A stretch of DNA of 63,916 nucleotides, filler included, from Stramenopiles sp. TOSAG23-6 (taxonomy: Eukaryota), in the NCBI GenBank assembly GCA_900128565.1. It is 3 parts of 3 records of this genome, joined end to end, with 100 filler letters (N's around TTAATTAATTAA, not from the genome) between each part and the next. Parts side by side here need not be neighbours in the genome. Positions count along the whole stretch, not along the records: positions 21,596 to 42,888 come from LT636029.1; 2 more parts are not named here. One strand, given 5' to 3'. The position numbers and the translations under genes are program-made. Shown here piece by piece: positions 21,496 to 44,312 of this stretch; positions within the stretch are counted from its first letter, which is position 1; every line of letters starts with the position of its first letter. Below the pieces are notes generated by a model. The model did no database searches, was not told the DNA's origin, and saw only the letters and a program-made list of their open reading frames with translations.

Positions 21496-21595
21496 NNNNN
21501 NNNNNNNNNNNNNNNNNNNNNNNNNNNNNNNNNNNNNNNTTAATTAATTAANNNNNNNNNNNNNNNNNNNNNNNNNNNNNNNNNNNNNNNNNNNN
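21496..21595. other. Assembly gap / contig linker
   Basis: N-run containing TTAATTAATTAA. Confidence 0.95.
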
Positions 21596-23426: not shown

Positions 23427-24287
23427 TTACTTCACTTCCAGGGAAAACACTGCACAATCAAGCATATAAAATGCCTCGTTACTAACCCCACTACCTCCAG
23501 GATTTTCGCACAAATATGGAACTCTACCAATGGATTGAATACTGAATAATTCATCAGAGAGAAAATCTCTACAGAATCTATTTACAAAACCTTCAAAAGT
23601 TTCATCACTTGGAGATTTTTCAGATAATAAATTTTCTTCTGGAATTTTCGTTTTACCCGGGGCTACCTCTACAAATGGGTTAGAAGGATAAACTAATGCC
23701 ACCAAAAGTCTACCACTCGGTTTCACTAAATGAGCAGCTTGTTGAAGTAATGTTTTAGGTCGAGGACATCGATCTAGAACGTTTAAACATGAGACAAGAT
23801 CAAAAGACTTCGTTTTTGAAGGACAAATTTTCTCTAGTTCATAATCCAATACCTCAAAGCCCCGCATGCGCAAACGCAAAGAACAAATTTTAGAAATATC
23901 AGTAGCTGCTACACCCCTATTGAATATTGTAGTAGAAGAAAGTAGTGAAGATATTTCTGCTGTTGTGGAACCACTACCAGCTCCTATATCTAAATATGTC
24001 TGAATACTACCTAACGACAAGAGAGTTTTTGCAGCATCGGCATCAAGAACAAACATTTCATGAGTTCCTAATAGAGCCGCCGCATCTGTGTTTGTTAATA
24101 AGCGACATGTTGTTAAAATCCGATAAAGACAACCTGCTAGTTTTGAACGACCCCAAAATCTTCGACGTTCGACGAAGTTTTTCGTACCGTTTCCAGGACT
24201 CAAAGTCTTAAATTTTCCACGTAAATGCGGGTCAAGTCGTGAGAGCTGAATAGAGTATAACGACTTTGGAAGCCACCGTAAAGCCAT
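23427..24287 (-). CDS. METTL9: DREV/METTL9-like methyltransferase
   Basis: MFVL, LDIGAGSG, FDLVSCLNVLDRC.RP, VPYLCE motifs. Confidence 0.8.
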   Translation of the reverse strand: MALRWLPKSLYSIQLSRLDPHLRGKFKTLSPGNGTKNFVERRRFWGRSKLAGCLYRILTTCRLLTNTDAAALLGTHEMFVLDADAAKTLLSLGSIQTYLDIGAGSGSTTAEISSLLSSTTIFNRGVAATDISKICSLRLRMRGFEVLDYELEKICPSKTKSFDLVSCLNVLDRCPRPKTLLQQAAHLVKPSGRLLVALVYPSNPFVEVAPGKTKIPEENLLSEKSPSDETFEGFVNRFCRDFLSDELFSIQSIGRVPYLCENPGGSGVSNEAFYMLDCAVFSLEVK

Positions 24288-24561
24288 AGAATACAATCAT
24301 ATAGTTTTGCAGAATTTTAATGTACCAACCGCAGTGTGTAGACAGACACTAACGGGTAGGTAGCTCTCTGAGTCTGACCCGATTTTTGAGATACGTGACA
24401 CGTGGTACCAGTAAATACCTTTAAATTCGAAATTCAGACTAAGGGCTAGGGCTAGAGCAAGCGCAAGTTCAAAATCATCTTCCAAGAATATTATTTATGA
24501 CATCACTTGATCCTTTTCAATTCATTATTTCACAACAAATCAAAAGTAAAAACACTACAAC

Positions 24562-25386
24562 ATGTCAAACTTTTCGTTCACTACGCTATTTGGAGATAAA
24601 CTGATCGGTAAGGACGGAGAAGTCAACACGGAGGATGTAACAACTGGCAAAGTTGTCGGCGTGTATTTCAGTGCGCACTGGTGCCCACCTTGTCGTGGTT
24701 TTACTCCGGTCCTTGGCGAAAAATATTCGAAATTAAAGGCAGCTGGCAAAGAAGTTGAAATTGTGTTTGCGTCGAGTGATCAAGATGAAAAGACATTCAA
24801 ATCATATCATGACACAATGCCATTTCTCGCCTTGCCTTTTGGTAAACGTGATCTCAAGAATAAACTTTCTAAAAAGTTTTCTGTTTCGGGCATTCCAACC
24901 TTGGTTTTCTTGGATGCAGATGGGAAAACAATAACAACTGAAGGTAGAGGAAATATATCTTCGGATTCGTTCATTGATGACTTTCCATATCACCCTAAAC
25001 CTCTAAATGATATCAAGGATTGTGTATCAGGGTTGAATGATAAACGAAGCCTGGTTGTAATCATGGATAAGGCAAGTGAAAGCGTGCAGAAAAAGATCTC
25101 TGAAGCTTTGTTGACAGTTGCCACATCTGAGTTGGAAGTTGATGAAAATGAGAGGAAGTCAGCACAATACTTTTTTACCGCAAAAGGTGGTGGTTGCTTA
25201 CCACAATTACGATCTCGTACAGGCTTGCCTGAACAAGAGAATCCAATTATGATTCTCCTTGATCTCGACGATGATGGTAGTTTTTATACATTTGAGGGTG
25301 AAGGTGGAGTAAACCTTGAGACAATAAAGGCTTTCATGAATGATTTCAAAGAGAAGAAATTGAAGAAACAACAATTCAAAAGATAA
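24562..25386 (+). CDS. Nucleoredoxin/tryparedoxin-like thioredoxin
   Basis: YFSAHWCPPCRGFTP, EIVFASSD, GIPTLV. Confidence 0.9.
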   Translation: MSNFSFTTLFGDKLIGKDGEVNTEDVTTGKVVGVYFSAHWCPPCRGFTPVLGEKYSKLKAAGKEVEIVFASSDQDEKTFKSYHDTMPFLALPFGKRDLKNKLSKKFSVSGIPTLVFLDADGKTITTEGRGNISSDSFIDDFPYHPKPLNDIKDCVSGLNDKRSLVVIMDKASESVQKKISEALLTVATSELEVDENERKSAQYFFTAKGGGCLPQLRSRTGLPEQENPIMILLDLDDDGSFYTFEGEGGVNLETIKAFMNDFKEKKLKKQQFKR

Positions 25387-25645
25387 TTATATTTTATATT
25401 TGATTGATTGTATGTAGAATACTAGAGAACTGGTGTATTGCTCTGATTTCTTATGTTAAAANAAGCGGTAATAAAAAGATATAATTATTATTAGAATTAA
25501 TTTGTTTTGACGTTTTCAACTCTTCACGTTTTATAGTACAATCATAGTAGACAAAATAACTATATACAAAAACAAGCCTCAAATATGGAATAATTATTAC
25601 ACACCCTACAATATATATATATTTACTATCAAATTCTGTACCAAA

Positions 25646-25715
25646 CAGAAAATATTACCAATTATTAAGGTCAGTATCGACAGAAAATATTACCAATTAT
25701 TAAGGTCAGTATCGA
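25646..25715. repeat. 35-bp tandem duplication spanning the queH stop codon
   Basis: cagaaaatattaccaattattaaggtcagtatcga x2. Confidence 0.85.
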
Positions 25716-26959
25716 CCACATGTTTTTTTCTACGTGAATACAATTTCTTCAACCGGTCATCATCAAATTGTCTTTTTGCATCTCGAAAGAAATGATCTAC
25801 GACTTCTTGACTCTCTTCTGCTGCATCCTTTTGAGGATCCTCAAAATAACGTGTACCAAGTCCAGCCGTTTCACCACCAATTTTTACTGGAGGAATTCCC
25901 TGCGATTTTCTCCAGAGATTTGAATCGCGAAGAGAATACGAACATCCACAAGTATTGTAAAAAAATATTTCAAAAAATTGTAACTTGTTAGGTACTTACG
26001 TCCTGTACCTAGGAAATTTTCTATCAAAAAAACAGAAGATAAAATTAAAATTTGAAATTAAAGTGGATAACATACAATACTCTTGCTTATAAAAACTTTG
26101 TTTTGCCGAAATTTCGTATTTTCGGAGAGTCATTTATTTCGTGTCAATATGTCAAAAAAAAAAAATCTGTTAGGTACAAAATTTCGTATTAAAAAAAAAA
26201 AAATGTATGAAAAAAAAACATACATTTCATCTGTTTGCTAATTGTAGATCCAATACTGAATGTTTGGATATCGTGCAGCTGCACGAAGACCACTATCATT
26301 TACTTGGCGCACATCTTTCCAACGAGATGTTGCGTTTGTTGTAGTAAAACACGGAAAATCATGTATTGTGAGAAGAAAAAAAAACAATTGTTAGGTACGA
26401 AATTTTCTATGAAAAAAAAATATTTGAAATCATCATGAAAACATACATGAGCTTTGGCATATGCTGCTGTGACCTCCATTCTCATATCAAAGCAAGCAGT
26501 ACAACGAACCCCTCGCTCAGGATCATATTCTAACCCTTTCATTCGTTTAAACCAGGATTTGGCATCATAGTCTGCGTCCACAAAATCCACACCGTGCTGC
26601 TTCGCATATCGTTTGTTTTCCTCTTTTCGAATTTCATATTCTTTTCTCGGATGGATATTTGGATTATAAAAGAAGATTGTAACATCAAGACCCTTTTCTA
26701 ACATTTCTTCAAACATTGCACCAGAACAAGGTGCACAACATGAATGTAAAAGTACCCTTTTCGCGCCATTTGGTGGCATTGCATTCATCTGTGGAGTACA
26801 ATCAATAGAGTATGGTGCGGATTCTGCTGGGTTATTTCGACAGCCCTTGTGACTGCAACTGGGAGCAGCAGACGCTCCATTATCGTAGCACAGAGCAATT
26901 GGGGCGCGTGCCAAGTGCCTATCAGATGGCATGTCGGCTGCAACATGTTTCAGATCCAT
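25690..26959 (-). CDS. queH: Epoxyqueuosine reductase QueH (DUF208), 4 exons, one in-frame TAG
   Basis: [29 protein letters not shown], and after splicing FYKQEYCGC; TAG at 26238-26240. Confidence 0.85.
25950..26075 (-). other. Non-canonical intron GT-TT (126 nt)
   Basis: tt|gtatgt...gtacctaac...acaatactt|g; restores QEYCGC. Confidence 0.85.
26132..26223 (-). other. Non-canonical intron GT-AT (92 nt)
   Basis: at|gtatgt...gtacctaac...cacgaaataaat|g. Confidence 0.8.
26361..26446 (-). other. Non-canonical intron GT-AT (86 nt)
   Basis: cat|gtatgt...gtacctaac...cacaatacat|g. Confidence 0.85.
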
Positions 26960-27192
26960 TCAGTGATTGATATTCATTGTTGCGAAAAAAAAACTACCTA
27001 TATAATCTACTAGACTATACGAAAGATTAGTATAATCGCAAAATCGCGCGTGATTGATAAGTATTTTTTTTTGCAGCAGCTGACTCGATGTTTTATGATG
27101 CTGTCATAAAATGCTACTCTACGCACACGCCCGTTCGAGTTAGCACCCACAGTGGAACACACAGTTAGTTCATAATTCTATTACTGACTAAA

Positions 27193-28383
27193 ATGTCTGG
27201 AGGCGCTACATTCACACCTCGCATATACCCGCGACCAACTCCTCTTTCTTCTTTTAAGGTCTACTCGAGGGCAACGTTGAGACATATTCGCGGTCCTTTA
27301 TTAGCTGTTGGCGTGACGTTTGCAACTAGGCCTTTATACAATCAACTTTCTAACTGTTTTCATTCGGATCGTTTGTTTTTTTCATTTTCAACCACGCTAG
27401 TCCATTTTTTTGTCTACTTGACGGTCAATACTTTTTTCTATTTGTTAGACCGCAATTGTTGGTTACTGCATTACAAGTTAGATCGCAAGAGGGCTCAGTT
27501 ACCCTCAACAGCCTTGATGAGAAGTACCTTAATTGAGGCTATAGTAAGTCAACTAGTCCTTGGACCACTACTTTTATATTGTATATTCCCTGTATTCAAA
27601 TATTTTGGACAACCTGGAAGAGATCAACCTCTTCCAAGCATTATGGAACTAATGCGAATGTATGTTCTCTGTGTATTTTCCAATGACTGGGGTTTTTACT
27701 GGAGTCATAGAACTTTCCACTGTAAAGCTATTTATAAGTTTTTTCATAAAACGCACCATAAGTATCTTGGTACTGTAAGTTTTGCCGCTGAATATGCACA
27801 TCCATTGGAACAATTGTTTGCAAATCATTTACCTACTGCAATGGCTTGTTTGTGTTTTGGGTTTCCAATTCATGTACGTTTTCATCAATCATTTCAAATT
27901 TGTTTTTTTTCGTAAAAAAATTCTTGTACAACAAATTTCATGTATCAATTTTGTTTTTCAATTTTATTTTTGGACCAAATTCTGTACCTAACGAATTTCG
28001 AATTGGACACTTCCCTCAAAAATACATGTGTGGTTAGTATGGCTTGCATGGAGGCTTGAAGAAACGTATGAAGCACATTCAGGATATGTATGTTTTATTT
28101 TTTTTTTTACAAAAAATTCGAATTTATTTTTCGTACGAAATTTTGTACCTAACAATTTTTAGTTTTTTTTTTGAAATATTTTTACAAAATACATGCTTTT
28201 CATGGCTCTATATTGCATCGATTAGGTTTGACAAATAGTGAGGCTGCAATTCACCACGACTATCATCACACTGCGAATAGAGGAAACTTTGGAGCTTTGT
28301 ATCTTGATCATTATTTTGGAACTATGGATGGTTTTTTATCTCTTGGAGGAGAAGAAGAATATATCAAGAAAAAGAGTACATAA
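27193..28383 (+). CDS. Sterol desaturase / C-4 methylsterol oxidase (fatty acid hydroxylase family), 3 exons
   Basis: His boxes HRTFH, HKTHH, AAEYAHPLE, EAHSGY, HHDYHH line up after splicing 27874-28027 and 28088-28194. Confidence 0.9.
27874..28027 (+). other. Non-canonical intron GT-AT (154 nt)
   Basis: cat|gtacgt...gtacctaac...caaaaatacat|g. Confidence 0.85.
28088..28194 (+). other. Non-canonical intron GT-AT (107 nt)
   Basis: tat|gtatgt...gtacctaac...caaaatacat|g. Confidence 0.85.
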
Positions 28384-28590
28384 AAAAAATAAAATTGAAA
28401 TGAAATTGACAATTGTACTATTTTTTTTATCAAACACGAAATATCGGTCAGATATTCAGCGAAGAAGTCTTTTTTTTACCTATCTATCTATGGAAATTCT
28501 AAATAGAATCCTATTATACTACGTACTGTCTATACTCTCTCAACTCTTGATCACGTTACGGTACGCCGTAAACCAATCGAATACTCTACA

Positions 28591-30071
28591 ATGTCATGCT
28601 CAAAGACTTCAAAGTTGCTTACTGAAGCCTATCGCAAAGTTGGTGCTTTTATGCCTACAACCTTAAGGCAAGTTCCTTTAGTAAAAACGTGGTCAAGTCA
28701 ACTTTGTTTTGAGTCTCTCAAATCAATCTTGGGTGAAGACAAAACACTTACAATAAAAAGTTCTGAAAATCGAGAGTTTATGTATAGCGAACGCGGCACG
28801 TCTGATAGACTTCTTGATAGTGGTGTTGGTAGCTCTACTGAAATAGTTGACATGCAAGTAGCAGACTTTTTTTCAGCTTTACGAGGTCAAGATGGAGAAA
28901 CTCCGAAGTTCCATTACTTTACTTCAATGCTTGATGACTTGGCTCCAAGGTTAAGTGAGACACACACTCCTGGATGGGAAAATTTTGTAGTTGACCATGA
29001 CCCGTTAATTAAATTGCACCCAATGAGTGCACCATCATACCCAAGTATTTGGATGGGTGGTAATGGGTCAACTACCCAAGCTCACTATGATGTATCAAAC
29101 AATATATTAACTCAAATATTTGGCAAGAAACGATTTCGACTTTGGGGACCTGATGCTCACCTTTCACTTCGAGTATTTCCTGATGCTCATCCTCGAGCAA
29201 GAAAAGCTCAGCGTATTATACCAAATAAATATGATGGGTATAGGAGCAGACGTAACTCTTCTGAAAGGTATGAACTTCCTTTACCGCCACCTGTGTTGGA
29301 TGTTGTACTTGAACCTGGTGACTGCATTCTCATACCCGCATTTTGGTTTCATCATGTAGAAGCTTTAGAAGAATCGATATCTGTCAATATTTTTTCGGAA
29401 AGTAAGATGAAGTTAGCTGCCTTGGAAATATTATCAAAGTCTCTACCTTCTCCTCTGCTTCGATGTGTCGAAGACAAATCAAATATAAATGAAATATCGA
29501 ATGTATTTTCACTGTTAGCTAATGATCTAGCATCTGCCATAACATTAAATAATAAGATATATAAACGGGAGAAATGTAGTTTCTTGGATTGTATGGTACA
29601 TTCTAGATATGATTTTGCGTCGGAAAGATTTGTAATGAATACAATGACTACAAGTAATGTAGTGAATAATCCAAATATAATAGCAAATGTCAAAGAAAAC
29701 ACGAAACAATTTCTGCCTCTATTTAATGATTTAGTAAAATCAGTTGAAAAAATATACACCAGCAATGCTATTGATCCTACAGGATCGAATGAAAATGTTT
29801 TATTAGATGGTAAAATTGTCGATGAAAAGTATCTTTTATTTTTTTTCAATTTTGAATTTATTTTTCGTACGAAATTTTGTACCTAACAAAATTTTTTAGA
29901 TTTTTTTTGAAATATTTTCCAAAATACAAGTATCCTTTAGGATTGAAAGAAATTATATTTGGTCATTTACTAGAGATGTGGGCTGTTCGCTGTAGTCATC
30001 TTTCAAAGAATAAAACGTTTACCACAAGTTCTCTTCTGCAAATGGCTGCTGAAGTAAGTAGAACACCATAA
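28591..30071 (+). CDS. JmjC/cupin-like 2OG oxygenase (start uncertain)
   Basis: IWMG..GSTTQAHYD, GKKRFRLW, LEPGDCILIPAFWFHHVE; intron 29829-29929. Confidence 0.85.
29829..29929 (+). other. Family intron, GT-AA (alternatively GT-AG to 29930 with early stop)
   Basis: aa|gtatct...gtacctaac...ccaaaatacaa|g; the AA end joins to ORF 29877-30071. Confidence 0.65.
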
Positions 30072-30367
30072 CTTTACAAGATATATAAAACCTTTACAAT
30101 TGAGACATATTTTTAATTTAGTTTTGGAATGAATGCTATTTTTATTCTAATATACCGACTCGTTTCTGTTTTGTATTTTTAATTTCGCATTGCCACCATT
30201 TGTATGACGATATACCACATGTTGTATAATCAAAAATTTGAAATTTCATCACGCGTGTCACGAAATCCGTAAAACTTTTGAAAAGAGAAACGTTCATATC
30301 AAGGGCATAAGCCATAAGGTACGTAATCTCGCAAAGTGGTACAAAGTATTACCAGTAAGCTACCAGT

Positions 30368-33300
30368 ATGACATGGAAACTGTCGTTCGCCAATGCTCCG
30401 GAGATTACACCAAAGCGTAAAGAAGATTTGCCTCACTCAATATCGGATGAGTGGTGCGCAAATTGGTTTAGTCGGGTATTTTTCTACTGGGTTACGCCAC
30501 TGGTTCACTTAGGAGCACACAGAGCACTTCGTGATGGTGATTTGGGTGAACTTGCACCAGGTTATCGTGTGTTCCGACGCTTAGACGACTTGAAAAAAAA
30601 TCTTTGTGTGTACGACGCAGATGTTGTTCGCGCTACTTTACAAACATATCGTCGACAAATGCTTTATGGTGGTATTTGTAAACTCTTCGGTGACGCTTTA
30701 CAGTTTGTTACACCTTTAGCACTAAAGATTGTTCTACAATATGCTCAGCAGCACCGTAATGAACCAAATGTTCCAGAAGAAGAATGGTTTGGGCTTCCAA
30801 AGGAGTTTTTTGCCTCAATTGCACTGTTCATTGCACCAGCTTTGACTGGGCTTCTCTATCATTGGTATTATCAATGGGTTATGTACGATATCAAAATTGA
30901 ATTTCAAATTTATTGTTTTGTAGAAAATTTTGTACTCAAACGATTTAAAAAAATATATATTTTTTTCACAACACATGTGGGCTGGACTGTATGTTCGAAC
31001 AAGTTTACAGGCATTAGTATATCGGAAGTTACTGTCTATTCCATATAGCGCAATTGGTAGTACTAATTCAAAACAAAAAAACGATAAGAAAAATTCTGAA
31101 AAAGCAAAAAATAAAGAAACGAAAGAAAAGAACACTGATGATTCTAAAAAGTCTGAAAAAGCAAAACCAAAATCCGTCCTAGCTGGACATATTGCGAATC
31201 TTCAAAGTCAGGACACTGTTGCTGTTGAGGGGGCATTATGGATGATTCATTATTTATGTATGTTTCGTGATGATTTTTCCTATTTTTCTTGGTAGACATT
31301 TTTGTACCCTAACAAAAAAAATCGAATTTTTGAAATATTTTTTCATCATCTATGGGCCGCTCCTCTATCAGTTGTTGTTTGTCTTGTTTTGTTGTATATA
31401 GAACTTGGTCTTGCAATGATTGCAGGAGTTAGTATTTTAGTTATATTAATACCTATTCAAAAAATAATTGCAGGATATATTGCTACTATAGCAAAAACAA
31501 CTTTAAAATGTTCTGATGAGAGACTTGAAACAGTTACTGAATGTTTGTTTTCAATTTCAAAATTTGATTTTTTTTTTCGTACGTAATTTTGTACCTAACG
31601 ATTTTTTTAAACTTTAAAAAAAAATCACAATACATGCATTCGGGGTGTGAGAATAGTTAAAACATTTTGTCTGGAGGAAATAATGCGTAATCGTGTGAAA
31701 AAAGCAAGAAAGAAAGAATTGCGTAGTTTATGGTACGCAGGACTATTAAGAGAGGGCAATGTTGCATTAATGCTTTCAGGTCCTTTACTATGTGCTTTGT
31801 CAAGTTTTGCATTATTTGTTTTGATTTCAGATGACGAGCTCACTGCCTCTAAAGCTTTTGTATCACTTGTATTATTTAACATGTTGAGAATGCCTTTAAT
31901 TCTAATACCAATGTCAGTTGGTATGGTCGTTCGAGGTTATGTGTCTGCAAAACGAATTACTGAATTTCTCCGACTTGATAATATTCAAGGATACATACAA
32001 AAAAATAATCATGGAGTTAATGCAGTTGTTGTAAATAATGCAACATTTTCATTCAGTGAAATGAATGATAAAAAAAGCGATACTCGTATCGATCCAAAAG
32101 CACACACGACGAGGCGTACTAATGACGATGAACAAGAATATTCTCCAGTAGTTGATAATATTGATAGCATGATCGAAATGAACGATGTTAATACTAAAAA
32201 CACTAACCCTAATGAAGGTTTCTATTTGAGAGATGTAAATATAAGTATTCAAAAAGGAAATTTGTGTTTTGTTGTAGGAAAATTTGGGTCAGGTAAGACT
32301 GCATTTCTTCACTCGTTACTTGGAGAAATGCATCTTGTTCATGGTTCCGTTTCTGTTGGTGGAACAACAGCTTTTGTGGGACAAAGTCCCTGGATATATA
32401 ATGCTACTGTAAAAGAAAATATAATTTTTGGGACTCATAAAAGTTTGTCTGATCATTCAATGCAACATCAAGACAATATTGGATTGGATAAAGAGAGATA
32501 CTCTGAATGTTTACAATGCTGTTGTCTACTTCACGATTTAGAAACCCTTCCAAATGGTGATGAAACCGAGATAGGCGAACGAGGTGTAAACATTAGTGGA
32601 GGTCAAAGAGCTAGAGTGGCTCTTGCACGAGCCATATATTCTAATCCGGATGTACTATTTCTTGATGATGTTCTTTCAGCAGTTGATGTTGATGTATGCC
32701 GACACTTAGTTGAAGAATGTATTGTTCCAATGATTAAACAAGGTAAAACTGTAGTAATAGCGACACATTCAATAAATTGGCTTAAGATTGCTGATCAAGT
32801 TATAGTTGTTAATGAGGGTGCAATTGAGTTCAATGGAAGCGCAGCTGATTGTATCAAAAGTAATGCGCTTATCAATATAAAATCTGAAAAAAATGAAATA
32901 TCTGAAACATCTAATACATTTGAAAACGATGATAGTGTACCAAACGAAAAAGTGAGCGTTACAAAAGTCAAACTTGACTCTGAAAAAGTTGAAGAAGAAA
33001 AGTCATCGAAGAGTCAGAAATCTCAAGATGGAAGATTGACCAAAACCGAGACAATGCAAGAAGGCTCAGTGAAGTCTCAAGTACTTCAAAAGTATATATC
33101 GTATGCTGGAGTATTCTTAACAATAGTTGTTTTATCTTCGGTAATTTTGCAGAATGCTTCAGCATTATTCTCAGATTGGGTACTCTCTCGCTGGGCAGAA
33201 GATCGAGGATCTAGATCTCCTACAACTAAAAAACCAGAACATTCTCATAATTATTGGTTGGGGATGTATGCCCTAACTGCCTTGGGTACACTGATATCAA

Positions 33301-35179
33301 TTTGTGTTTTTAGGGTTTGTGGTTTGTATGCGGGCCTTGGAGCAGCGAAGAAACTTCACAGTAATATGCTTCATGCATTATTAGGAGCACCATTGAGATA
33401 TTTTCATGTATATGACCCTTTTGTTACTTTCATTTTATTTTTACTATGAAAATTTTGTACCTAACGATTTTGGCTTTTAATTTTTTCACAATACATGTGA
33501 CTCCTGTAGGGCAAATGATAAATCGTTTTGGAAGCGATACTCGTAAAGTTGATAATGATATATTTACGTCGATAATGGGTATGTTGACAATACTTGTTAG
33601 TATAATATGTGTATTAGTACTTCAAATACTTTTATTATGGTGGTTGATTGCTTCGGTAATACCTCTGTTTTTTGTATACGCGTACTTTGCAAAAATATAT
33701 CGTAGTTGTTCACGTGAACTAAAGCGGCTTGAAAGTGTGGCTCTTTCACCTGTGTTTAATGCATTCGAGGAAGCACTTGCTTCGGGTGGTCTACAAACAA
33801 TTCGTTCATTTGGTGTACAGAGGAGATTTATGGATCAAATGGCCGACAGAATTGATAACCATTCACGTGCATGGACAAAAAATAACTTTGTGAATCGTTG
33901 GATGGGCACAAGACTTGATTGGATTGGGGCATTTCTTGTTGGAGGTGTTGCTTTTGGAAGTGTTATGTTTATATATCATGATTCAACTAATGGTGGTGTA
34001 GCAACTTTAGATACAGGAATGATTGGTCTATTAATAGTAGCAACGTCGCAAGTGAGTAGCTCTTTAAATTGGGGAGTGAGACGAGTTTCTGAGATGGAGT
34101 CGAATCTTGTTTCAGTTGAAAGAATTTTAGAAGTGTGTGAAGTAGATCAAGAAGTAATTACTCGATGTAGTGTAGACGATGTTTCAACAGATTCAAAGAT
34201 AGTAATACCATCGGCTATTGTAGGGTGTATTGAAATGAAGGACGTAAAGATGAGATACCGCGAAAACCTCCCTCTAGTTCTGAAAGGTATTAATTTTATA
34301 ATTCCAGCTGCTTCGTCAGTTGGTGTTGTTGGCAGAACAGGCAGTGGCAAATCTTCTTTAATTAATGTCCTTGTACGTCATGAATTTTAAATTTCTTCTT
34401 TTTTTTACTGTGAAAACTTTTTTATCTCATGAATTTTGTACCTTAAAAAGTTTTTCCACAGTACATCTTCGATTGGTTGAGCCCAGTGATGGAATTATAT
34501 CCATTGATGGTATTGATTGTAGTAAAATTGATCTTAATGTCTTGCGAACTATCATCACTGCTGTACCTCAAGAAGCTGTTATGTTCTCTGGATCTTTGAG
34601 AGAAAATGTACGTTTTAATTTTTTTTTTCGTATGAATTTTCCTACCTAAAAATTTTTTTTGGAATATTTTTTCATTATTGATTTGATGATTCATTTCAAT
34701 TTGTTTTTTAAATTTCATACCTAACGATTTTTTTTTGATATTTTTGCACAATACATATTGATCCAGGAAATGAATTTGACGATGCGCAATGTCTTGAGGC
34801 TTTAGCAGCTGTAGAATTACAAGATTTTGTTCAAACTCTCTCAGAAGGTCTTTCGACAAATGTTTCTGCATTAAGTGCTGGTCAACGCCAATTAATTTGT
34901 TTTGCTCGGGCTTTAGTTCGCAGACCTAAAGTTTTGTTGATGGACGAAGCGACGTCTCATATTGATCATAAAACTGATTCAAAGATTCAAAGTTGGATAA
35001 GTCAGAGAACTGGTTTGTTGAACAATACTACTATCTTTATTATAGCACATAGAATAAATACGGTAATGGATTGCGATCATATCATTGTAATGGATGATGG
35101 AAAAATTATTGAATTTGGAAATCCAAAAGAACTTTTATCAAATGGTGGAGCTTTTAAAACTCTCCTTTATAATTCATAA
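30368..35179 (+). CDS. ABCC/MRP-type ABC transporter, 7 exons
   Basis: Two TMD-NBD halves; GKFGSGKT, ISGGQRAR, GRTGSGKSS, LSAGQRQL, DEATS; continuous after removing six family introns. Confidence 0.92.
30883..30976 (+). other. Non-canonical intron GT-AT (94 nt)
   Basis: at|gtacga...cacaacacat|g. Confidence 0.8.
31258..31353 (+). other. Non-canonical intron GT-AT (96 nt)
   Basis: at|gtatgt...gtaccctaac...catcatctat|gg; gives HYLWAAP. Confidence 0.85.
31543..31635 (+). other. Non-canonical intron GT-AT (93 nt)
   Basis: at|gtttgt...gtacctaac...cacaatacat|gc; gives TECIRGVRIVK. Confidence 0.85.
33408..33496 (+). other. Non-canonical intron GT-AT (89 nt)
   Basis: cat|gtatat...gtacctaac...cacaatacat|g; gives YFHVTPVG. 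Confidence 0.85.
34373..34466 (+). other. Non-canonical intron GT-AT (94 nt)
   Basis: ctt|gtacgt...cacagtacat|ctt; gives GKSSLINVLLRLVE. Confidence 0.85.
34608..34756 (+). other. Non-canonical intron GT-AT (149 nt, duplicated 3' module)
   Basis: aat|gtacgt...catacctaac...cacaatacat|att; gives SLRENIDP. Confidence 0.85.
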
Positions 35180-35219
35180 TAAATTGTAAAATTTTATTTG
35201 TTTTTTAATTTTTTACATT

Positions 35220-37568
35220 TCAAGTTCTATGTTGTGCGTATCTACCTCTACGATCTTGGCGATCTTTTGCCAAAGCCCTTTCATTGAAAGATTCTTTTCT
35301 GCTTAGTAAAAGTTGAGGTGAAAGGGAGGATCTATGACGTTCTCGTTCAATTCTATTGTGGATTTTCTCCTGAGCATCTTTTTCTTCTTCATGAGAACCA
35401 AAAATTGGTGGAGGAGTATCACGTTCTCGAAACATTGTAGCTCGTGATACATTTTGATGATTTTTTTTTTTTTTTTTATTATCATCTTTGCCAACTTCTT
35501 TTTGTAAAGTTGGTTTTATACCAGATTTTGAAGCTTCTTTTAAAACTTTAGTACCAGAGAGTTCAAAACGTGGAAACTTTAATTTTCCTCGCTTCTTAGC
35601 TTTATAGCTGGTGTGTCCCATGGTTTTACTCAGTAAGCTCATATGTGTATTGTGTGGGTATCTCCCACTACGATTCCGTGCAGAGTGGCGTGTTTTCTTG
35701 CAACCATTTGAAGATCTTATTTCAGTTGTATTTTGTAATGTATACTGTGTTTTTCCAGATTTTCGTATATTTGTGAAATCATGACTGTCTGGATTTACCT
35801 CACGCACACCTGAGTTAATACTGTCCGATGAAGTAAATGTACAGTCATCTCTGAAATCACTATTAATACTAACAGATGAAGTAGATGTATCATCATGTTT
35901 AGTCTCAAGACTAGCACTATCACTAGTTGTATTTAACTCACTTGAGTGATCGAAATTAATACTAATTATTTTTTGTCTTTGTTGAGAAGCTTGTTTATGG
36001 AGCATTTCCTGTTTTTCGATACTCTTTTTATAGTGTTTACTATAGCAAGTTGTCACTTGGAGTGTAGGTGGGGAAATTTTGAATGTAGTGGGATGTTTTA
36101 TTTTTGGCTTTTGCATCTGTTGCGAATCTACATTTTTAGGAGAAGACAACTCTACATTTTTAGGAGAAGACAACTCTACATTTTTAGGAGAAGACAGCTC
36201 TACACGAGTACCCATTACAGGACTAACTCCTACCATTCTCAGACTTGGATCTTTTCTAGTTTTTTTTTGTTTTTCTAAATATTTAGTTCGGCCTCTTGCA
36301 GTTCCGCTCCACTTCTCAGTCCACTGGCCTGTGTCTAATTTTTGGGATGATCTTATTGGCGTTGGACTAATGTGTAATTGTGTGTTCTTATGTGCCTGCT
36401 TAACTGGAAAAGAAGTCACTTTTGAATGTTTTGGTGCACTTACTATTGGATTGAACGTATATTGTTCTTTTGGAGTTTTCCGAATGGGATGATTATGATT
36501 AACAATGACTTTTGCTTCGCCTTCAAATCGATGGACAACTGGAGCCACATACTCTTGTGACTCACCAGTAATAGAATCTTTAGTTGTTTTATGCTTACTG
36601 TGATTTTCCTCGTGATGAATTTTCTGAATACTATTTTTCTCTTTATGATATTTATGACTCTTTTTACATGGAAAATTATTTGAGCCATTGTGAGTTGATA
36701 ATTTAGACGATTTCCCAGATTTTTTTCTATCAATCGCTGAAGCTCTATCTACTGGGCTTGGCAATCCTCCCCTAACTATTAAAATATCATCTTTATTTAT
36801 TTGGTTCTGTGATGAAATTACATGGTTTTTCTCCGTTGCTAAAATAGGAAATTTGTTAGTTTCACAAGGACTCCAGGCGCTTCCACAAAAAGGACAGCCA
36901 GCACCTAACGATGAACCTAAAACAATTGAATTGTTAATATGTTCAGTATTCGTTTTTAATTCCTTTTGAAGAGCAATTTTGGCATTGAAATATTCGACAG
37001 TGGTTTCCATACATAGGCGATGCACACACTGTAAGCAATTTGAACAAGCTAATAAGGATGTTTCAGATTGACCATGACTATTTTTAGAATATTTTTGTAA
37101 AATATCTCTACATATTGGACAAAATTTGGTTCGCCTGAAAGAAAAAGACAAATTTTCATGTGATAAGTTCTTTAACTGCTGGCATTTACCGGCTGCAAAA
37201 ATTCCTGCAGATTCGTCTATTTCTAGACCCCGTTTAAGGAGACTGACAACTTCTGTTTCTAGAAAAGACGTCTGCCAAGCTAGAGGAGAATCTCTGGGAA
37301 GTCCTAGAAGTTTGCATGTAACAAAAATAATGTGTTCACATATATCAATATTGCCACATGAACACTTATTTATCGCACCAATATGTACCCTAGCCATGAC
37401 TTGTTTAGTTGAATATCCTTTACTATTTCTTTTGCGAGCGTTCTGAACAATAAATGTAGTTGGCCCAACTCGTTCTAGAAGGAGGCAAGGTGGTGGCTTC
37501 CGTAATAGTTGGAGTACCTGGGAGGAAGGGTATTCCCTAAATGGTACAAGTCTTCTAGAAGACGCCAT
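35220..37568 (-). CDS. SWIM zinc finger + RING-like protein (ZSWIM2/MEX-like N-terminus)
   Basis: GPTTF...CSC....CEHIIFV, then CPIC...C..C..CVH..C...CPFC; disordered C-terminus. Confidence 0.75.
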   Translation of the reverse strand: MASSRRLVPFREYPSSQVLQLLRKPPPCLLLERVGPTTFIVQNARKRNSKGYSTKQVMARVHIGAINKCSCGNIDICEHIIFVTCKLLGLPRDSPLAWQTSFLETEVVSLLKRGLEIDESAGIFAAGKCQQLKNLSHENLSFSFRRTKFCPICRDILQKYSKNSHGQSETSLLACSNCLQCVHRLCMETTVEYFNAKIALQKELKTNTEHINNSIVLGSSLGAGCPFCGSAWSPCETNKFPILATEKNHVISSQNQINKDDILIVRGGLPSPVDRASAIDRKKSGKSSKLSTHNGSNNFPCKKSHKYHKEKNSIQKIHHEENHSKHKTTKDSITGESQEYVAPVVHRFEGEAKVIVNHNHPIRKTPKEQYTFNPIVSAPKHSKVTSFPVKQAHKNTQLHISPTPIRSSQKLDTGQWTEKWSGTARGRTKYLEKQKKTRKDPSLRMVGVSPVMGTRVELSSPKNVELSSPKNVELSSPKNVDSQQMQKPKIKHPTTFKISPPTLQVTTCYSKHYKKSIEKQEMLHKQASQQRQKIISINFDHSSELNTTSDSASLETKHDDTSTSSVSINSDFRDDCTFTSSDSINSGVREVNPDSHDFTNIRKSGKTQYTLQNTTEIRSSNGCKKTRHSARNRSGRYPHNTHMSLLSKTMGHTSYKAKKRGKLKFPRFELSGTKVLKEASKSGIKPTLQKEVGKDDNKKKKKNHQNVSRATMFRERDTPPPIFGSHEEEKDAQEKIHNRIERERHRSSLSPQLLLSRKESFNERALAKDRQDRRGRYAQHRT

Positions 37569-38328
37569 ATAACTTGTTCTATTTGTTTAATAAAAGTCTA
37601 TGGCATATTTGCAGTATAGTATCCTTCTTTCCTTCAGAGATGACATGTATGTGTACTAATGAGTGTACCTCTCCCTCTTTTGTGCTTGCAGTTACATTTT
37701 GATTCGAATTGAATTGAATGAATTAAGGTAGTCGGGTACGTTTTTCGTGATTTCGGTCATTTCTGAGACAATAGATGCTTCAAAATGACAAAAATAATTA
37801 ATTTTATGACAAAAGCCCACGACAAAAGTTTTGAAATAGTGTCAAGTTCATTATTACCATGCTTAGGTACCAATGAGATAATTTTTCTAGTAGCCCCATT
37901 AAAATGATCTTGTGTGACTCCATTTTTCTGGAATTTGCTGATTTCAGAGGTGATTTTAATGGGGCTACTAGACAAATTATCTCATTGGGTGCTAAGCAAG
38001 ATAATAATGAACTTGACACTATTTCAAAACTTTTGTCGTGGGCTTTTGTCATAAAATTAATTATTTTTGTCATTTTGAAGCATTTTTTTTGTGTGATTTC
38101 TGTCGTTGATTATTTTCCAATTTACTACAAAAGTTCAATAAAATGAGTTTATAACAAACATATAACAATGACTACAGATACGACTATAGTTAAAACGTTT
38201 TATTGAAGCTATATGCAGCCATAATCAAAGGCACATTCATTGAAGCTTTCTCATATTATATAAATCTTCACTCTGAAATTGCTCATTGGAACTATGAAAT
38301 TGCTCATTGGAACTACAAAATGCTCTCT

Positions 38329-38706
38329 ACAACACCTATAAATCATCCATTTCCATCAAAACTGCAAAGTCATCTGTATATCTTTCTTCTAATGCTGCAT
38401 CACATGTTGACTCTTGTTCTGTAGAAGCCACACTGCTATAGACATCTAGCCATTGGAAAAAAAAATGTCATTATTTCATTAATGAAATAATGTACATTTT
38501 GAACTTACACGACAGCAATTGGCGCAATTGGCGATACTATTCAATGAGGACGATCTAGATCTGGTGAAGGTGTTTTCAAAATTGATCGAGCTGATGGTTT
38601 TACGTTACAACACCTGTAAATCATCCATTTCCATCAAAACTGCAAAGTCATCTGTATATTTTTCTTCTAATGCTGCATCACATGTTGACTCTTGTTCTGT
38701 AGAAGC
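38329..38706. repeat. 100-bp imperfect direct repeat (38329-38428 / 38607-38706)
   Basis: Duplicates the 3' end of the exonuclease ORF. Confidence 0.85.
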
Positions 38707-39576
38707 AGCAGCCCGTAAATTATCACCAAGAGGGTCGTTTTCTGCAAATATTTCTTTCTTCATGTCTGCTTCCCAAATATGACGGTCAGTCAACCATTTA
38801 CGGTGCGTTATCCATTCCTCCAACGTCATGACAAAACGATGATTCTTCTCCTTGATTGCTACAATACCCACCTTGGATTTGAGGATTTCAAATACTGCTC
38901 TTACATCTCCTTCGGCTCTATGGGGTGTTACACCAAAAGCTTCCATCGTCTTGTTCATTGTTTTCTGGAAAATAGCCCCCAGTTTCTTTGACTTTGATCC
39001 AAATACATTGTGCAACCGCATCACATCGATTGTACCAGATATACCCCATTCAGCTATTTTTCTGCTCCAAAGGACACCACGACACTTTCGCCGGCACGTG
39101 TTCTCCATCATATTCATATCAAACGTATCACTATTTGATCCTGCGAGATAAATCTTTTCCTTGTTTGCTGTGACACAAAACTTATTTATAATATCACCAA
39201 CCTCAGTAAGCATTGTTTCAAATGATTTACCATCTCGTTTGATCATTGCTTCTGATATTTTATGAATATCCTCAGCACCATATTTAGTATCATTTATCAA
39301 AGCTGAATATGTTGTTATTTCAATAAGAGAGAATTTGCGTTCTGTCTCGCGTTTGAGTTGACTAATGTGAAGAGATATTTCCACTGGCTCTTCTTTACTT
39401 GAATTCAGTCCGGATGCCTCTAAATCCCAACAAATAATGAAGTCACCTACCTCAATAAAATCAGTAATCTCAGATCTACGTGATGCTGGTGGACCTTTCC
39501 TATTATAATGACCATCAACAATACAACTTGGAGCACGGTGACCTATACGTAAACAATTACCACAGCGCGTTTTCAC
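38605..39576 (-). CDS. CCHC zinc knuckle + DEDDh 3'-5' exonuclease (transposon-borne)
   Basis: CGNCLRIGHRAPSC; WDLEASGL (Exo I), N..TFD (Exo II), HRAEGDV (Exo III). Confidence 0.8.
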   Translation of the reverse strand: MKTRCGNCLRIGHRAPSCIVDGHYNRKGPPASRRSEITDFIEVGDFIICWDLEASGLNSSKEEPVEISLHISQLKRETERKFSLIEITTYSALINDTKYGAEDIHKISEAMIKRDGKSFETMLTEVGDIINKFCVTANKEKIYLAGSNSDTFDMNMMENTCRRKCRGVLWSRKIAEWGISGTIDVMRLHNVFGSKSKKLGAIFQKTMNKTMEAFGVTPHRAEGDVRAVFEILKSKVGIVAIKEKNHRFVMTLEEWITHRKWLTDRHIWEADMKKEIFAENDPLGDNLRAAASTEQESTCDAALEEKYTDDFAVLMEMDDLQVL

Positions 39577-39606
39577 TTCTTTTGGTTTTGATTTTTTTTT
39601 TTTTTT

Positions 39607-42602
39607 TTATTTTTTTTTTTTTTTTTTTTTCTCTCTATTTTGCTTATTATTACTGGGAACACGCAACACCACATCATCATCAATGACAATAGTATTATCA
39701 TTATCATCCGCATCAGCAAAACCACCTGGCAAGTATTGTGTGTGCTCTGTAGCCATCTGTTCAAAACTTTTCAACTGGCGTCTTACTCGGTTCTTCTTGC
39801 GTTCTACTTTAACTTTTGTTTTTTTATTGTATTTCTTCCGGCTTTCATTTATGATTTCTATTGCTTCCGCATGTTTCCATTGATCGTTGGTAATTTGTAC
39901 CCCAGCTTGCTGTAGGCCATGCAATAATGATGAAAACCCACCAGCATTGCGCGAAACAGTCATTGCATTACGTAATGCATATACCAATGTACCACAATAT
40001 ATCGAACGGTGTTTTGGTGTTTCATTGCTTACGGATGAGAAATTCAACGCTTCGTTCATTTGTGTATTAAACGGATGACAAGACATTTCAAGCTGCTTAA
40101 TTGTTGAATTATCATCCCACGATTTATTGCCAACAGGCCAATCAGTCCACTTAATCGGTTTGTCATCTGCATCATATGTACCACCCTTTGCTTCAGCTGC
40201 AAGACCAAGACATCGACCTTCCATGAATTCAGCACAAGTTGAGTGATCACCCGCCAAATGACGTTTACCATTGTTGCATCGCCTCTGTATCTGCTGAACA
40301 GTATCACCATTTGAACCTCCAACACGCAAGCTCCAAACAAAATTCTTTCCAATACGGTGAATTACACGGCTACCTCCTGGAGGTGGCTTTGCCCACATTG
40401 GATTTACCACTACCTTCTTCCGGTGCCCTGGATCGGCATTAAATCGCGGCACAGGCTTGTAATTTTCCATGTCACCCTTCTTTTCTTCACGGCGCAAACG
40501 TTTACGGGTAGCAGAATCATCATCTGTAGTTACACTCTTCCAATATGTATATACTTCATTTCCATCCGGGAGAGTAATTGGTTGTCTCATTGCTAGATTG
40601 TGTAGACGAGGTGCAGCTAAAGACTCCATGCCTTTTGCAGATGAATTTTCCATGTTCATGCGGCAGTCATGAGCACTAACTGGAATTCCACTTTTACATG
40701 ATAAACAATCTCTCTGTGTACATAAGTATCCAACAATATCCTTAGTGTTGCCATCAATAACACTTGTAAATCCTCCACGACTAGAATATGACTTCCCTGA
40801 GCCACGCTTTGTCCACCCTGTGTCAATTGTCACATTAATTCCAACCATGTAGTGTGTGTTTTCAGTATCAGCCCATGGAAAGTCTTCATCACATTCTAGA
40901 TTGCTATCTAAAGAATCAAATCTTTTCGTCTCATTGGAATGAATATCCTGCACATGTTTTAGCTTTGCCTCTAGATCATTGCATAAATTGAAAGCATTAC
41001 GCAGTTGTTTTCTTTCTTTTTTGTCAGAACTTTGAACAAACATTTGAGACGCAAGAGTAATCACAGCAATTTTCAATTGTGTTTTTGCTTTGCCTAATGC
41101 ATGCTTAACACAAATAACATCTGTTTTTGCAATTTCTTTTCGTGCACTATTATTCATTGGGATTTTTTTTTCACCTCTCTCTAGCGCTGCAATTACTGAA
41201 TTTCGACGTCCCTCATAGGTAAGCTTCAATGCAATAGTCTCTTGGTTGCGTCCATAATGTATGAAATGATTCCGCATTGTCTGTCTATAATTTACTGATA
41301 ACGGAATACCAAGAAGTGTTGCAACCCTAAAAAATAAAAATAACATTACAAAATTTATATAAATCAATAAATTAATGGTGAAAACAAAATAAATAAATTA
41401 ATGGTGAAAACAAAATAAATAAATTAATGGTGAAAACAAAACAATAAAACATACCTTGGAGCATCCGACCCACCTTTCCCAAGGTATAGGAGTGCAGCAG
41501 CCATATTAATATTTATTGAATACCTACTGTTCCCGCGCGGGTAAGCATCAGGCTTACCACACTGCTCAAATTGTTTTGGTAGCCTGTGAGGTCCAAACTG
41601 TACTAACTGAGATGTTGAGAGGACTAGTTTGTGGGGTTTTGTCTCAACGGATGGTGAATTTCGTGTTGAATATTGCTTTGAGGAACAAACTCCACTACAT
41701 TGATACATTATGTTCGACGCAAACCCCATACGTGATTCTGAATGACCTCGTACCACCGGTATAGATGATTTTATTTCCTTTTTTTTTTTGGCATAATATT
41801 TTTTAGCCAACATAACAAAATCTCTTGTGTCATCTTGAATAGAACTTGCNAATCCCAATAAAAATTTTTCGACCACAGCACCGACGCAGCATCTACATGT
41901 TAGTCTTCCATAAATAAAACTATTAAGATTTTCCATGTTCATTAACCGGTTTCCATCTATTTTAGGCTGATGCTTTGCAGCATTAGTTGCTTCGGCATCA
42001 TGACGCAGTTTCTTTCTTCTATTTTTTATGTAAATTTTCTTTACTTTTTTTTTACTAATCTGAGGTTTAGCATACGAATGAATTTTGTCCAAATTCCACG
42101 ATAGGTCATTGGGACTTGCATTCACATGTGAAATGTGTTTGCCATTGCAACCACCTGTGCTGACTCGGCGTAGATAAAGAGGTGTTGAAGTATCTGATAA
42201 AGAACGTGAACGTGAAACAGCAGGTGTGTTACTACATCTACGGGTAAACTCCAAACGAACTTTTTGGATTGCAATTGGTAAATTGTCTGATTCTTCACTC
42301 ACTCTTTCTATTGTTCCTGGCGATGCAAAAGGAGCAGCTTTTTTCAAAATGCTCTTGTTCACAGAAATCGAATTTGAGCGCAAACATGGAGGTCCCACAT
42401 TAGATGTCAATGTATCTATATTATTTATTTGATCAGTTGTTGTCTTCAAGGGTTCACCGCGGGGACTTGAGTCTGCTTGGGTTTTCAAGCTTTTATTACT
42501 TGTTGAGGCACTCTCCTTGGTGGACTTCTTCCTCTTCCCTTTATTACTCCATGTTTCTCTGGGTGCTTGATTACCTTTATTGTACTTTTGGAACTTACCC
42601 AT
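39607..42602 (-). CDS. DDE transposase (Mutator-like/Kolobok-type), 2 exons
   Basis: IDTGWTKRG..YSSRGG, CxxC...HxC..N..SSAKGME, TDDDS, DPGH, TQMNEALN; ORFs joined by canonical intron 41327-41454. Confidence 0.8.
41327..41454 (-). other. Canonical GT-AG intron inside the transposase gene
   Basis: ag|gtatgt...tttttag|g restores frame; contains about 26-bp tandem repeats and lacks the family core. Confidence 0.8.
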
Positions 42603-42888
42603 TTCCTACTGTCACTGATCATGAGAGATTCGCCTTTCCTTGTTTGAGGAAATATGCGCAAGGGAAGGGAAGCGAATGTTCACTGGTTCGTCCCGATTAT
42701 GAACTGACTCTCTAAATCTTTGCGATTTCGTGTTCTACAATTCCCTCAGCAAAAAAAACATTTTTTTTTTTTTTTTTTTTGAGATCCTGTAAACCCAAAC
42801 TGTAAAACCGACAATTTGTCGGTTTTACAGTTTGCTTTTAGGTTTATTAGCAAAATGGTACAAATATTTTTTTTTGGTTTTTTGGTTT

Positions 42889-42988
42889 NNNNNNNNNNNN
42901 NNNNNNNNNNNNNNNNNNNNNNNNNNNNNNNNTTAATTAATTAANNNNNNNNNNNNNNNNNNNNNNNNNNNNNNNNNNNNNNNNNNNN
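42889..42988. other. Assembly gap / contig linker
   Basis: N-run containing TTAATTAATTAA. Confidence 0.95.
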
Positions 42989-43071: not shown

Positions 43072-44312
43072 ATGATTCTAAATTTTTGCATACTAATTCA
43101 ACACCAGCTAATGCAAATCCTTCACAGTATTCAATATCTTCTTTTGTCATATATTTTGGAAAAATATTGTTTTTTATTGTTTTGTTTTTTTTGGTTAGGT
43201 ACAAAATTTTCTATATATATATGTATTTTTTTTTTTGGAAATACATTTTTGTAGTAAAAATTTTGTTCTTCAAAAAAACAGTATTCAAAAATGATGATAA
43301 CGGACATTCCATCACGATTTAGCATTGTTTCATTAGGTACCATATATGCCTCAATTGAATGAGACAATGCATCCACGCCAGTTGCAAAAGTAAGTAATGC
43401 AGGCTTCTTGCAAGTAAATTGAGGAATCAGTGCCGCAGATTTAGGAAGGAGCGCAGGATGACCAAAAACAACTTTGATTTCATCCACATCTTTAATCACG
43501 CAACTCTTACCACCATCAGAACCCGTGCCAGCAGTTGTAGGAATTGCACCAAATTCAGGGACAGCTTGTACCCAAGCTTCATCTACTATATTGGGTAGAC
43601 CTCGACGACACGTTTCTGTAATAAAACGAGCAGTATCATATATCGTGGAAAATATTTTTTTTTTTTTGTAAAAAAATTCGTTAGGTACAAATTTTGGTAT
43701 AAAAAAAAATTCAATTTTGAAAACGTACATCTGCAGTATGAAACGAAGGATTGCTTCGTGCTTCGGCTACAACGGCCATACCTCCTTTTGCGGCATCTAT
43801 TGGTCCACCGCCACCTACACCGATACATGTATTGCAAAAAATATTTTGCTTTCAAACGTTTTGTTAGGTACAAATTTTCAAATTTTCATTGTAAAAAAAA
43901 CATATTTTACGTTCAATTTTGAAAACGTACATGAATCACATTTTCCTTCCTCAAAAGCAGCAGCAATGTGAGCAACGTCAGCGTGACTAGGGTCCGGTGT
44001 GCATTCGTCAAAGACAAAAGGTGTCATGCCAACATCACGCAACTGTGCTACAACTTCATCAACGATACCAAGAGCAGAAACTCCTGCATCAGCTACAATA
44101 AGAGGTCTAGAGCATGATTGTGCTTTTAAGCGGTCAACGAAGAGTGCAAGTGCTTCTGTTCCTGCAAAAATTGACTGGTCTGGAAAGTTCAAGATGTTTA
44201 GGTCTGTATTGAAACTCAATGTTGGTTGATGGAAAGTATTTGATAAAGTCGATAACAGACGAAGGCGTTTCGCAGCTGAACTCACTACGACCCGATGAGC
44301 ATATCCCATCAT
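43072..44312 (-). CDS. Iron-containing alcohol dehydrogenase (3' partial, at least 4 exons)
   Basis: Spliced CIGVGGGGPIDAAK, AIPTTAGTGSD, TGVDALSHSIEAY; introns 43827-43930, 43638-43728, 43149-43305 and one from 43071 into the gap. Confidence 0.88.
43149..43305 (-). other. Non-canonical intron GT-AT (157 nt)
   Basis: at|gtccgt...gtacctaac...ccaaaatatat|g. Confidence 0.8.
43638..43728 (-). other. Non-canonical intron GT-AT (91 nt)
   Basis: gat|gtacgt...gtacctaac...cacgatatat|g. Confidence 0.8.
43827..43930 (-). other. Non-canonical intron GT-AT (104 nt)
   Basis: at|gtacgt...gtacctaac...gcaatacat|gt; restores the GGG motif. Confidence 0.85.

Follow-up and report, generated by a model that had tools for sequence, protein, structure and literature searches.

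Analysis of a 63,916-nucleotide (nt) stretch of DNA from Stramenopiles sp. TOSAG23-6 (GenBank assembly GCA_900128565.1), which joins three parts of this genome through N-filled gaps and is referred to here as the window, revealed a 94-nt, phase 0 intron at positions 34373–34466 (+) of an ABCC transporter gene that begins with GT and ends with AT. The GT..AT register is right to within one base, and the observation is real and well supported at this site. The intron belongs to a family of related introns that supplies every intron modelled in the window and in which the canonical AG is never found as the last two bases (0 of 33 introns). We consider it probable that the intron is a copy of an introner-like, non-autonomous element of about 100 nt, and that its AT end derives from a target-site duplication.

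The junction in the ABCC transporter gene

The ABCC gene (30359–35179, +) consists of seven exons and six family introns, and domains PF00664 and PF00005 are found on its homologues. When the introns are given GT..NN boundaries, NN being any two bases, the spliced gene is a single open reading frame (ORF) of 4206 nt encoding 1401 residues, which aligns without gaps to the orthologue P0242 (EukProt g2520.t1, 55% identical) at all six junctions. The intron at 34373–34466 sits directly after the Walker A motif in the second nucleotide-binding domain. Its flanks read ctt|GTACGT...CACAGTACAT|ctt or, with a longer 3′ end, ctt|GTACGT...CCACAGTACAT|ctt. The original prediction had pointed to these differing flanks, ctt|GT...ACAT|ctt, and they are indeed what the sequence reads. 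The register can be read here because the exon TT before the donor (34371–34372, +), the upstream copy of a putative 2-bp repeat, mismatches the terminal AT (34465–34466, +), which is the downstream copy. The donor box GTACGT (34373–34378, +), with which 17 of 32 family copies start, contains a second GT at 34377–34378. It is followed by a branch-point box, TACCTTAAA (34439–34447, +), a variant of the family's TACCTAAC, and by a CAG (34459–34461, +) that lies 5 nt before the intron end and is bypassed.

The region 23000–42888 was compared with one DNA run and with three RNA runs, each from a different study; gaps in RNA coverage elsewhere in this region carry no weight in the argument. RNA contig X6 record 22 (260 nt) aligns at 34130–34372 and then continues with 17 unaligned letters. 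RNA contig X12 record 8 (166 nt), from a second study, aligns from 34591 back to 34466, stopping short of 34462, and then has 40 unaligned letters. DNA contig X3 record 14 (34039–34736) runs uninterrupted through the intron. Contig ends at 34372 and 34466 are those expected of GT..AT or TG..CA; a register slid to xx..AC would give 34370 and 34465, and splicing from the GT at 34377 to the CAG ending at 34461 would give 34376 and 34462. We infer the exon–exon joint 34372/34467 from the points at which the RNA contig alignments end. Because T stands on both sides of the junction, the mRNA has no power to separate GT..AT from TG..CA.

The encoded protein points the same way. Across the junction P0242 reads SSIVNVLLRLVNP where the window reads SSLINVLLRLVEP, with no gap, and over a longer stretch GRTGSGKSSIVNVLLRLVNP is aligned, again ungapped, with GRTGSGKSSLINVLLRLVEP. 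It had been proposed that GT..AT yields NVLLRL and the slid xx..AC register NVHLRL; this is so, and P0242 has NVLLRL. Among 103 Walker A matches drawn from 120 homologues, the junction residue is Leu in 95, Phe in five, Ile in two and Thr in one. Histidine at this position, or mRNA junctions at the CAG, had been named as observations that would speak against GT..AT; His occurs in none of the 103, and the RNA pieces end elsewhere.

A different junction is implied by a deposited protein, P0241 (EukProt GSMAST32.ASY1.ANO1.1834.1), which is identical letter for letter to the translated ABCC exons over long stretches and is evidently a model of the window's own gene. Its residues at the 34373 junction, INVL-VLH-LRL, are those expected if the inner GT were spliced to the bypassed CAG and nine bases retained; this model is apparently wrong. 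P0241 has gaps or read-through at all four ABCC junctions that it covers, with VLH where nothing belongs, VRFNFFFR in place of IDPG, and four residues missing at the 31543 junction. Similar faults are seen in the AFG1-like ATPase gene (16262–18400, +), whose three introns lie at 17303–17401, 17714–17804 and 18111–18212 (all +). Its deposited model, P0121 (EukProt GSMAST32.ASY1.ANO1.2374.1), has gaps or read-through at both junctions covered. The family-based model of this gene is gap-free against P0122 and P0123 at all three junctions. In the two genes together, 9/9 tested junctions thus align to orthologues without gaps, and splicing restores the coding sequence. Errors at every covered junction of P0241 and P0121 suggest an annotation pipeline limited to canonical splice sites.

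The intron family and its two-base border repeat

The family was first spotted in a scan for branch-like boxes, in which dozens of similar introns turned up, and 33 introns were curated from open frames on both sides together with nhmmer searches. The alignment, position counts and branch distances given here cover 32 copies; the 33rd intron came from the nhmmer matches. The nhmmer search recovered 31 of the 32 curated copies, the copy at 51329–51462 (+; GT|GT..AT) being the one not recovered, and gave eight further matches, one of which is the 33rd intron, 17303–17401. This intron is exactly 99 nt long, in frame and free of stops, and reads through within a 492-residue ORF. It was confirmed by gap-free alignment to P0122 and P0123, orthologues that do not have the 33 residues it encodes. 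Such stop-free, in-frame copies escape ORF-based exon finding.

The 32 copies align over their full length with a mean pairwise identity of 0.63 and the consensus AT|GTACGTTTTCAT..ATTT.AAATT..T-run..C.TA..AAATTTTGTACCTAAC..T/A-run..AAATATTTTTTCACAATACAT|G. The median length of the family introns is 99 nt (range 86–157). Among the 33, 32 start with GT and one with GC, and the ends are AT in 28, TT in four, AA in one and AG in none. In-frame open frames flank all 32 introns checked, and two of these have only 19–25 codons on one side. Several features of the family are canonical U2-type traits, namely the GT/GC donor, branch boxes of the TACCTAAC type and positions −14 to −11 that are mostly T. 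In the copy at 47839–47945 (−), two donor-box bases are lost; it starts GCGTTTTC and would use a GC donor, and its flanking frames still fit. Folding the 32-copy alignment with RNAalifold gave no base pairs, hence no conserved structure between the two intron ends.

The dinucleotide before the donor is the same as the last dinucleotide of the intron in 29 of 33 cases (shuffled mean 21.2, P = 3e-5). All four TT-ending introns, 49696–49844 (+) and 25950–26075, 52482–52594 and 55485–55586 (all −), are preceded by TT in the exon (Fisher P = 8.6e-4), and AA precedes the donor of the single AA-ending intron, 29829–29929 (+). At position −3 there is no co-variation (13/32), and the repeat is therefore 2 bp long. 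Four borders are mismatched, those of 1157–1250, 34373–34466 and 51038–51129 (all +), with TT against AT, and that of 51329–51462, with GT against AT; the intron copy is AT in each. This two-base border repeat looks like the signature of a 2-bp target-site duplication. The general rule is GT..NN, with NN copying the last two bases of the exon, and AT is the majority rather than the rule. The original prediction, which assigned GT..AT to five introns, is borne out at 34373 to within one base and fails for 52482–52594 and 49696–49844, which end in TT.

The mechanism that we favour would run as follows. The element would carry its own donor, GTAYGT, a strong branch box of the TACCTAAC type, T-runs and a fixed terminal box, ..TTTTTCACAATAC, and would insert with a 2-bp target-site duplication, usually of AT and sometimes of TT or AA. 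Splicing would take out the element together with the downstream duplication copy and would thereby restore the original coding sequence exactly. The acceptor would lie two bases past the terminal AC of the element (..CACAATAC), whatever those bases are, and would never be AG. The presence of the donor, the branch box and the T-runs argues that the major (U2-type) spliceosome most likely removes the intron, in which case it must accept YAT| for YAG| and ignore AGs nearer the branch point.

Several points weigh against this account. The two ends of the element share no more than 3 bp of inverted repeat (GTA..TAC, taken from the family consensus), and no autonomous partner was identified. The window does contain a Mutator-like ORF (39610–41397), which is without a link to the intron family, and target-site duplications of the Mutator-like group are much longer than 2 bp. 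With no empty site seen, the case for the duplication is a statistical one built on 33 copies, 24 of which share the same AT flank. The RNA evidence consists of assembled contigs rather than raw reads, from which usage levels and minor isoforms are not readable; the joint 34372/34467 is absent among the 15 joints listed, with 239 more beyond these. An intron with G first and U last is disfavoured in model spliceosomes. Finally, the probable GT-AG intron at 41327–41454 described below would, if real, mean that AG acceptors are used too, making the bypass of AG harder to explain.

It is unlikely that the family reflects instead a uniform intron grammar, in which rigid, long signals have caused old introns to converge and the two-base repeat is a requirement of splicing. 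Signals of this long and rigid kind are indeed required in some algae and yeasts with small genomes. Here the consensus fits 33/33 modelled introns, its best-conserved blocks are the donor, the branch box, the T-tract and the 3′ end, and at each of the four mismatched borders the intron has AT, as though selection favoured it. Convergence of this kind is nevertheless hard to square with a likeness that extends to stretches with no known role in splicing (TTTCAAATTT, CGTACGAAATTTTG and GAAATATTTTT), with lengths that cluster at 86–107 nt in 25 of the 32 copies, or with TT/TT and AA/AA pairs that co-vary. Moreover, fragments of the family occur outside modelled introns (55212–55239 and 58435–58468), and the depth of family words in seawater DNA is in the thousands, against single digits for most exon bins.

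Placement of the 3′ splice site

A CAG close to the 3′ end had been reported in five introns, and each is placed as described: 5 nt before the end in 1157–1250 (+), 34373–34466 and 52482–52594 (−), 7 nt before it in 57427–57525 (+), and 8 nt before it in 49696–49844 (+). Each CAG represents the family's terminal CACAATAC box with one base changed, so that the five are not independent features. The further claim that use of any of them would shift the frame is correct for the outer GT donor and breaks down for the inner GT at +5 of the GTNCGT donor box. By arithmetic, splicing from the inner GT to the CAG stays in frame, with 9 nt kept at 1157, 34373 and 52594 and 12 nt at 49696.

This in-frame pairing is the basis of a reading in which the CAG-holding copies are canonical GT-AG introns that leave 9 or 12 bases in the mRNA. 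It holds the frame at 1157, 34373, 52594 and 49696, and the deposited P0241 reads INVLVLHLRL. The RNA pieces, however, would then reach 34376 and 34462, and they stop at 34372 and 34466. P0242 is without the three-residue insertion, and P0241, being faulty at all four ABCC junctions covered, was probably forced onto canonical sites by its pipeline. The last 20 nt of the other 28 copies, which have no terminal CAG, are free of AG. We therefore regard this reading as very improbable as an account of the junction; splicing from GT(+5) to CAG may occur as a minor isoform.

A register of xx..AC, in which the cuts would fall two bases before the GT and right behind the terminal AC, and the introns would be AT-AC introns of the minor spliceosome or of the U2 type, is also improbable. 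AT-AC introns are an established class, the mRNA is the same under either register in 24 of the 33 copies, and the branch box ACCTAAC is similar to the U12 consensus TCCTTAAC. At 34373, however, this register predicts His and contig ends at 34370 and 34465, neither of which is seen. It would also leave a 5′ dinucleotide that varies (AT, TT, AA or GT) beside an ignored, perfect GTAYGT two bases away. The U12 donor TATCC is present in 0 of the 33 copies, one of which starts GTATCT, the branch-to-end distance is 30–46 nt in 30 of 32, and T-runs are present. GT-AT is a rare class in a literature listing of intron types. Like U12-type introns, the family combines a GT start with a non-AG end and has a long, strongly conserved branch box; unlike them, it has no TATCC donor, it has T-runs, and its branch-to-end spacing exceeds their usual ~10–26 nt.

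The view that the 3′ site is not simply the first AG after the branch point is upheld. Nine introns, and 34373 as well, hold an unused AG between the branch A and the junction, 10 nt or more past the branch A, and first-AG scanning is therefore excluded. Splicing of the intron at 28088–28194 (+) passes over an AG that lies 32 nt from its end, and RNA pieces begin at 28193, at the AT|G end of the intron, and not after that AG.

The original prediction offered two ways in which the site might be set instead, by distance from the branch point or by a terminal motif. The 3′ end of U12-type introns tolerates several dinucleotides and is placed by its distance from the branch site, so that in a reading of the same kind the terminal box would be a mere passenger. 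In favour of this, 30 of 32 copies fall inside a 17-nt band, with 30–46 nt between the branch A and the junction, and the copy at 49696 holds a second branch-like CTGAC nearer its end. Against it, 34373 has a distance of ~21 nt and 49696 one of 95 nt, and the other copies vary base by base, while the last ten bases are nearly constant. In 26 of 32 copies, those with C at position −3, the AC of the terminal box ends exactly two bases before the junction, and the dinucleotide in between co-varies with the exon flank. A fixed branch-to-junction distance is thus unlikely, and we give the distance reading as a whole little credence; this part of the prediction is not sustained.

What the junction does track is the terminal box plus two bases. 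Each of the last ten intron bases is constant in 70–97% of the 32 copies: C in 27 at position −10, A in 29 at −9, C in 23 at −8, A in 26 at −7, A in 28 at −6, T in 31 at −5, A in 30 at −4, C in 26 at −3, A in 28 at −2 and T in 31 at −1. The idea of a terminal motif fits these counts, with the qualification that the introns are copies of one repeat and that their end copies the last two bases of the exon (29/33). The second catalytic step would thus be placed by the terminal box and not by distance; the box might act through a variant U2AF-like reader or through the short complementarity of the GTA and TAC ends.

The remaining ABCC introns of the family lie at 30883–30976, 31258–31353 (ending CTAT), 31543–31635, 33408–33496 and 34608–34756 (all +). 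Elsewhere on this strand, copies are found at 907–1004 and 5081–5170 (both AT|GT..AT), 27874–28027, 50020–50110, 50695–50798 and 51765–51861. On the opposite strand they occur at 26132–26223 (ending AAAT, with short flanking frames), 26361–26446, 43149–43305 and 43638–43728 (both ending ATAT), 43827–43930, 54591–54692 (ending GCAT) and 62091–62185 (all −).

Fragments of the branch-box region of the family occur at 55212–55239 (+) and 58435–58468 (+), one of them on the strand opposite to the local gene, and may be remnants of non-intronic insertions. Two copies stand head to tail at 21339–21496 (−), ~3 nt apart (..CCAAAATACAC ggt GTATGTTTTC..), beside an N-filled gap; this pair could represent a micro-exon, a nested insertion or an assembly join. 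A screen for GT-AG introns outside the family that join long frames gave 43 candidates, and all but one look like noise in long ORFs. The one left is a probable canonical intron of 128 nt at 41327–41454 (−), GTATGT...TTTTTTAG|G, with an internal tandem repeat of ~26 nt, just upstream of the Mutator-like transposase ORF; the aligned runs contain no RNA support for it.

Relation to known introns and the host lineage

Introners that carry their own donor and co-opt an acceptor from the target-site duplication have been described in Micromonas pusilla (IE1) and as a Chrysochromulina family (PMC11282704; Gozashti 2022, PMC9860276). They share with the window family many near-identical short introns per genome, a donor inside the element, a marine protist host, and an intron made up of the element plus one duplication copy, with the coding sequence restored. 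In those families the co-opted bases give a canonical AG. Here they are two in number, mostly AT, and never AG in 33 introns; inverted repeats hardly exist, and empty sites have yet to be seen.

A second parallel is with the larvacean tunicate Fritillaria, whose introns end more often in AT than in any other dinucleotide (F. pellucida, 44%; F. borealis, 34%), and in which YAY forms the last three intron bases and often also precedes the donor (Soo et al. 2026, PMC13326754). In the window, 27 of the 33 introns end in YAY (CAT in 23, TAT in four), and YAY precedes the donor in 17 (CAT in nine, TAT in eight). The two systems share this YAY rule, a retained T-rich tract and a proposed transposon origin; the Fritillaria introns are removed by the U2-type spliceosome, the machinery that we propose for the window family. 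They differ in that the main Fritillaria classes (AG/AC and AG/AT) start with AG, whereas 32 of the 33 introns here start with GT. The Fritillaria introns, moreover, are diverse and not one family, and they belong to an animal in which the mechanism is tied to duplicated U2AF subunits. A tunicate origin of the window, considered in view of the 3′ AT and YAY parallel, was ruled out by the best matches, which are to stramenopiles (oomycetes) and to EukProt GSMAST32.

Non-canonical introner elements of Amoebophrya (Farhat 2021, PMC7789003) and the nonconventional introns of euglenids (PMC11282704) resemble the family in being repeated introns of marine protists with direct repeats across their borders and non-GT-AG ends. 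There, inverted repeats of 8–20 nt pair the ends and the borders are highly variable; the window family, in contrast, has no conserved pairing by RNAalifold and a constant GTAYGT donor. An Amoebophrya origin was ruled out by the G+C content, which the same source puts at ~54–58% for that genus (PMC7789003) and which is ~35% in the window, an AT-rich, gene-dense piece of eukaryotic DNA.

The best matches of two window genes are EukProt records named GSMAST32, a name that we take to denote a MAST-3 marine stramenopile; oomycetes and other protists come next. Taxonomic assignment through a protein atlas goes no further than Eukaryota. These records are annotations of the same genes, and their apparent identity is lowered because the introns were mis-modelled. 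No description of such introns was found in the MAST genome literature or in the introner surveys, in both cases in their main texts, and a supplementary listing is possible. Broader literature searches likewise yielded none. The 2018 multi-MAST paper does not mention splicing or "canonical", the Incisomonas and MAST comparative papers do not mention introns, and the main texts of the introner surveys mention neither MAST nor stramenopiles.

To our knowledge, a genome-wide departure from the AG acceptor is otherwise found only in larvacean tunicates and, in a different form, in Amoebophrya and euglenids. The introns of the window most likely make up a family of the introner type, its non-AG acceptor supplied by a target-site duplication. 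We tentatively extend this to the host, as a proposal to which we would give not quite even weight: that in a free-living, MAST-3-like stramenopile essentially all introns come from one introner family, and that its major spliceosome has shifted to a box-placed YAT|, ignoring nearby AGs. If so, non-AG splicing on a genome-wide scale would have arisen a second time, separately from its origin in larvacean tunicates. Introners would also be shown to be tolerable without landing on AG, which would widen the range of sites open to intron gain. One mobile family making GT..AT introns in a protist would be a clean natural experiment, of interest to research on intron gain and on 3′ splice-site choice; since the donor and branch box are of textbook form and only the acceptor is odd, it would allow a direct test of what positions the second catalytic step. 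In practical terms, P0241 and P0121 are faulty at every covered junction, and the proteomes of this lineage that enter phylogenomics and ocean gene catalogues are therefore probably damaged at such introns; on the same proposal, public proteomes of these uncultured protists would carry systematic indels at nearly every intron.

The stretch is found in seawater metagenomes and in polyA metatranscriptomes. For bins of family introns within 25652–31618, summed word depth is ~600–3600 in the two deeper RNA runs (X6 and X7) and 2600–12000 in the seawater DNA run, and most exon bins are in single digits; from these depths it follows that the intron family is hugely repeated in seawater DNA. Its abundance in the RNA libraries could reflect unspliced RNA, stable introns or carry-over of DNA. 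A metagenome scan with a 15-mer from the branch region gave at least 119 loci, with no family copy among the matches listed, and a scan of viral contigs with a 16-mer gave 28 loci, none from the intron family. A search of the whole window against Rfam gave no matches. The part joins at 21496–21595 and 42889–42988 are written as 44 N, TTAATTAATTAA and 44 N, and one of the joins cuts a family intron that starts at 43071 (−). Short runs of a telomere-like repeat, CCCTAA / TTAGGG, occur at 47228–47270 (+) and within the intron at 52482–52594 (−).

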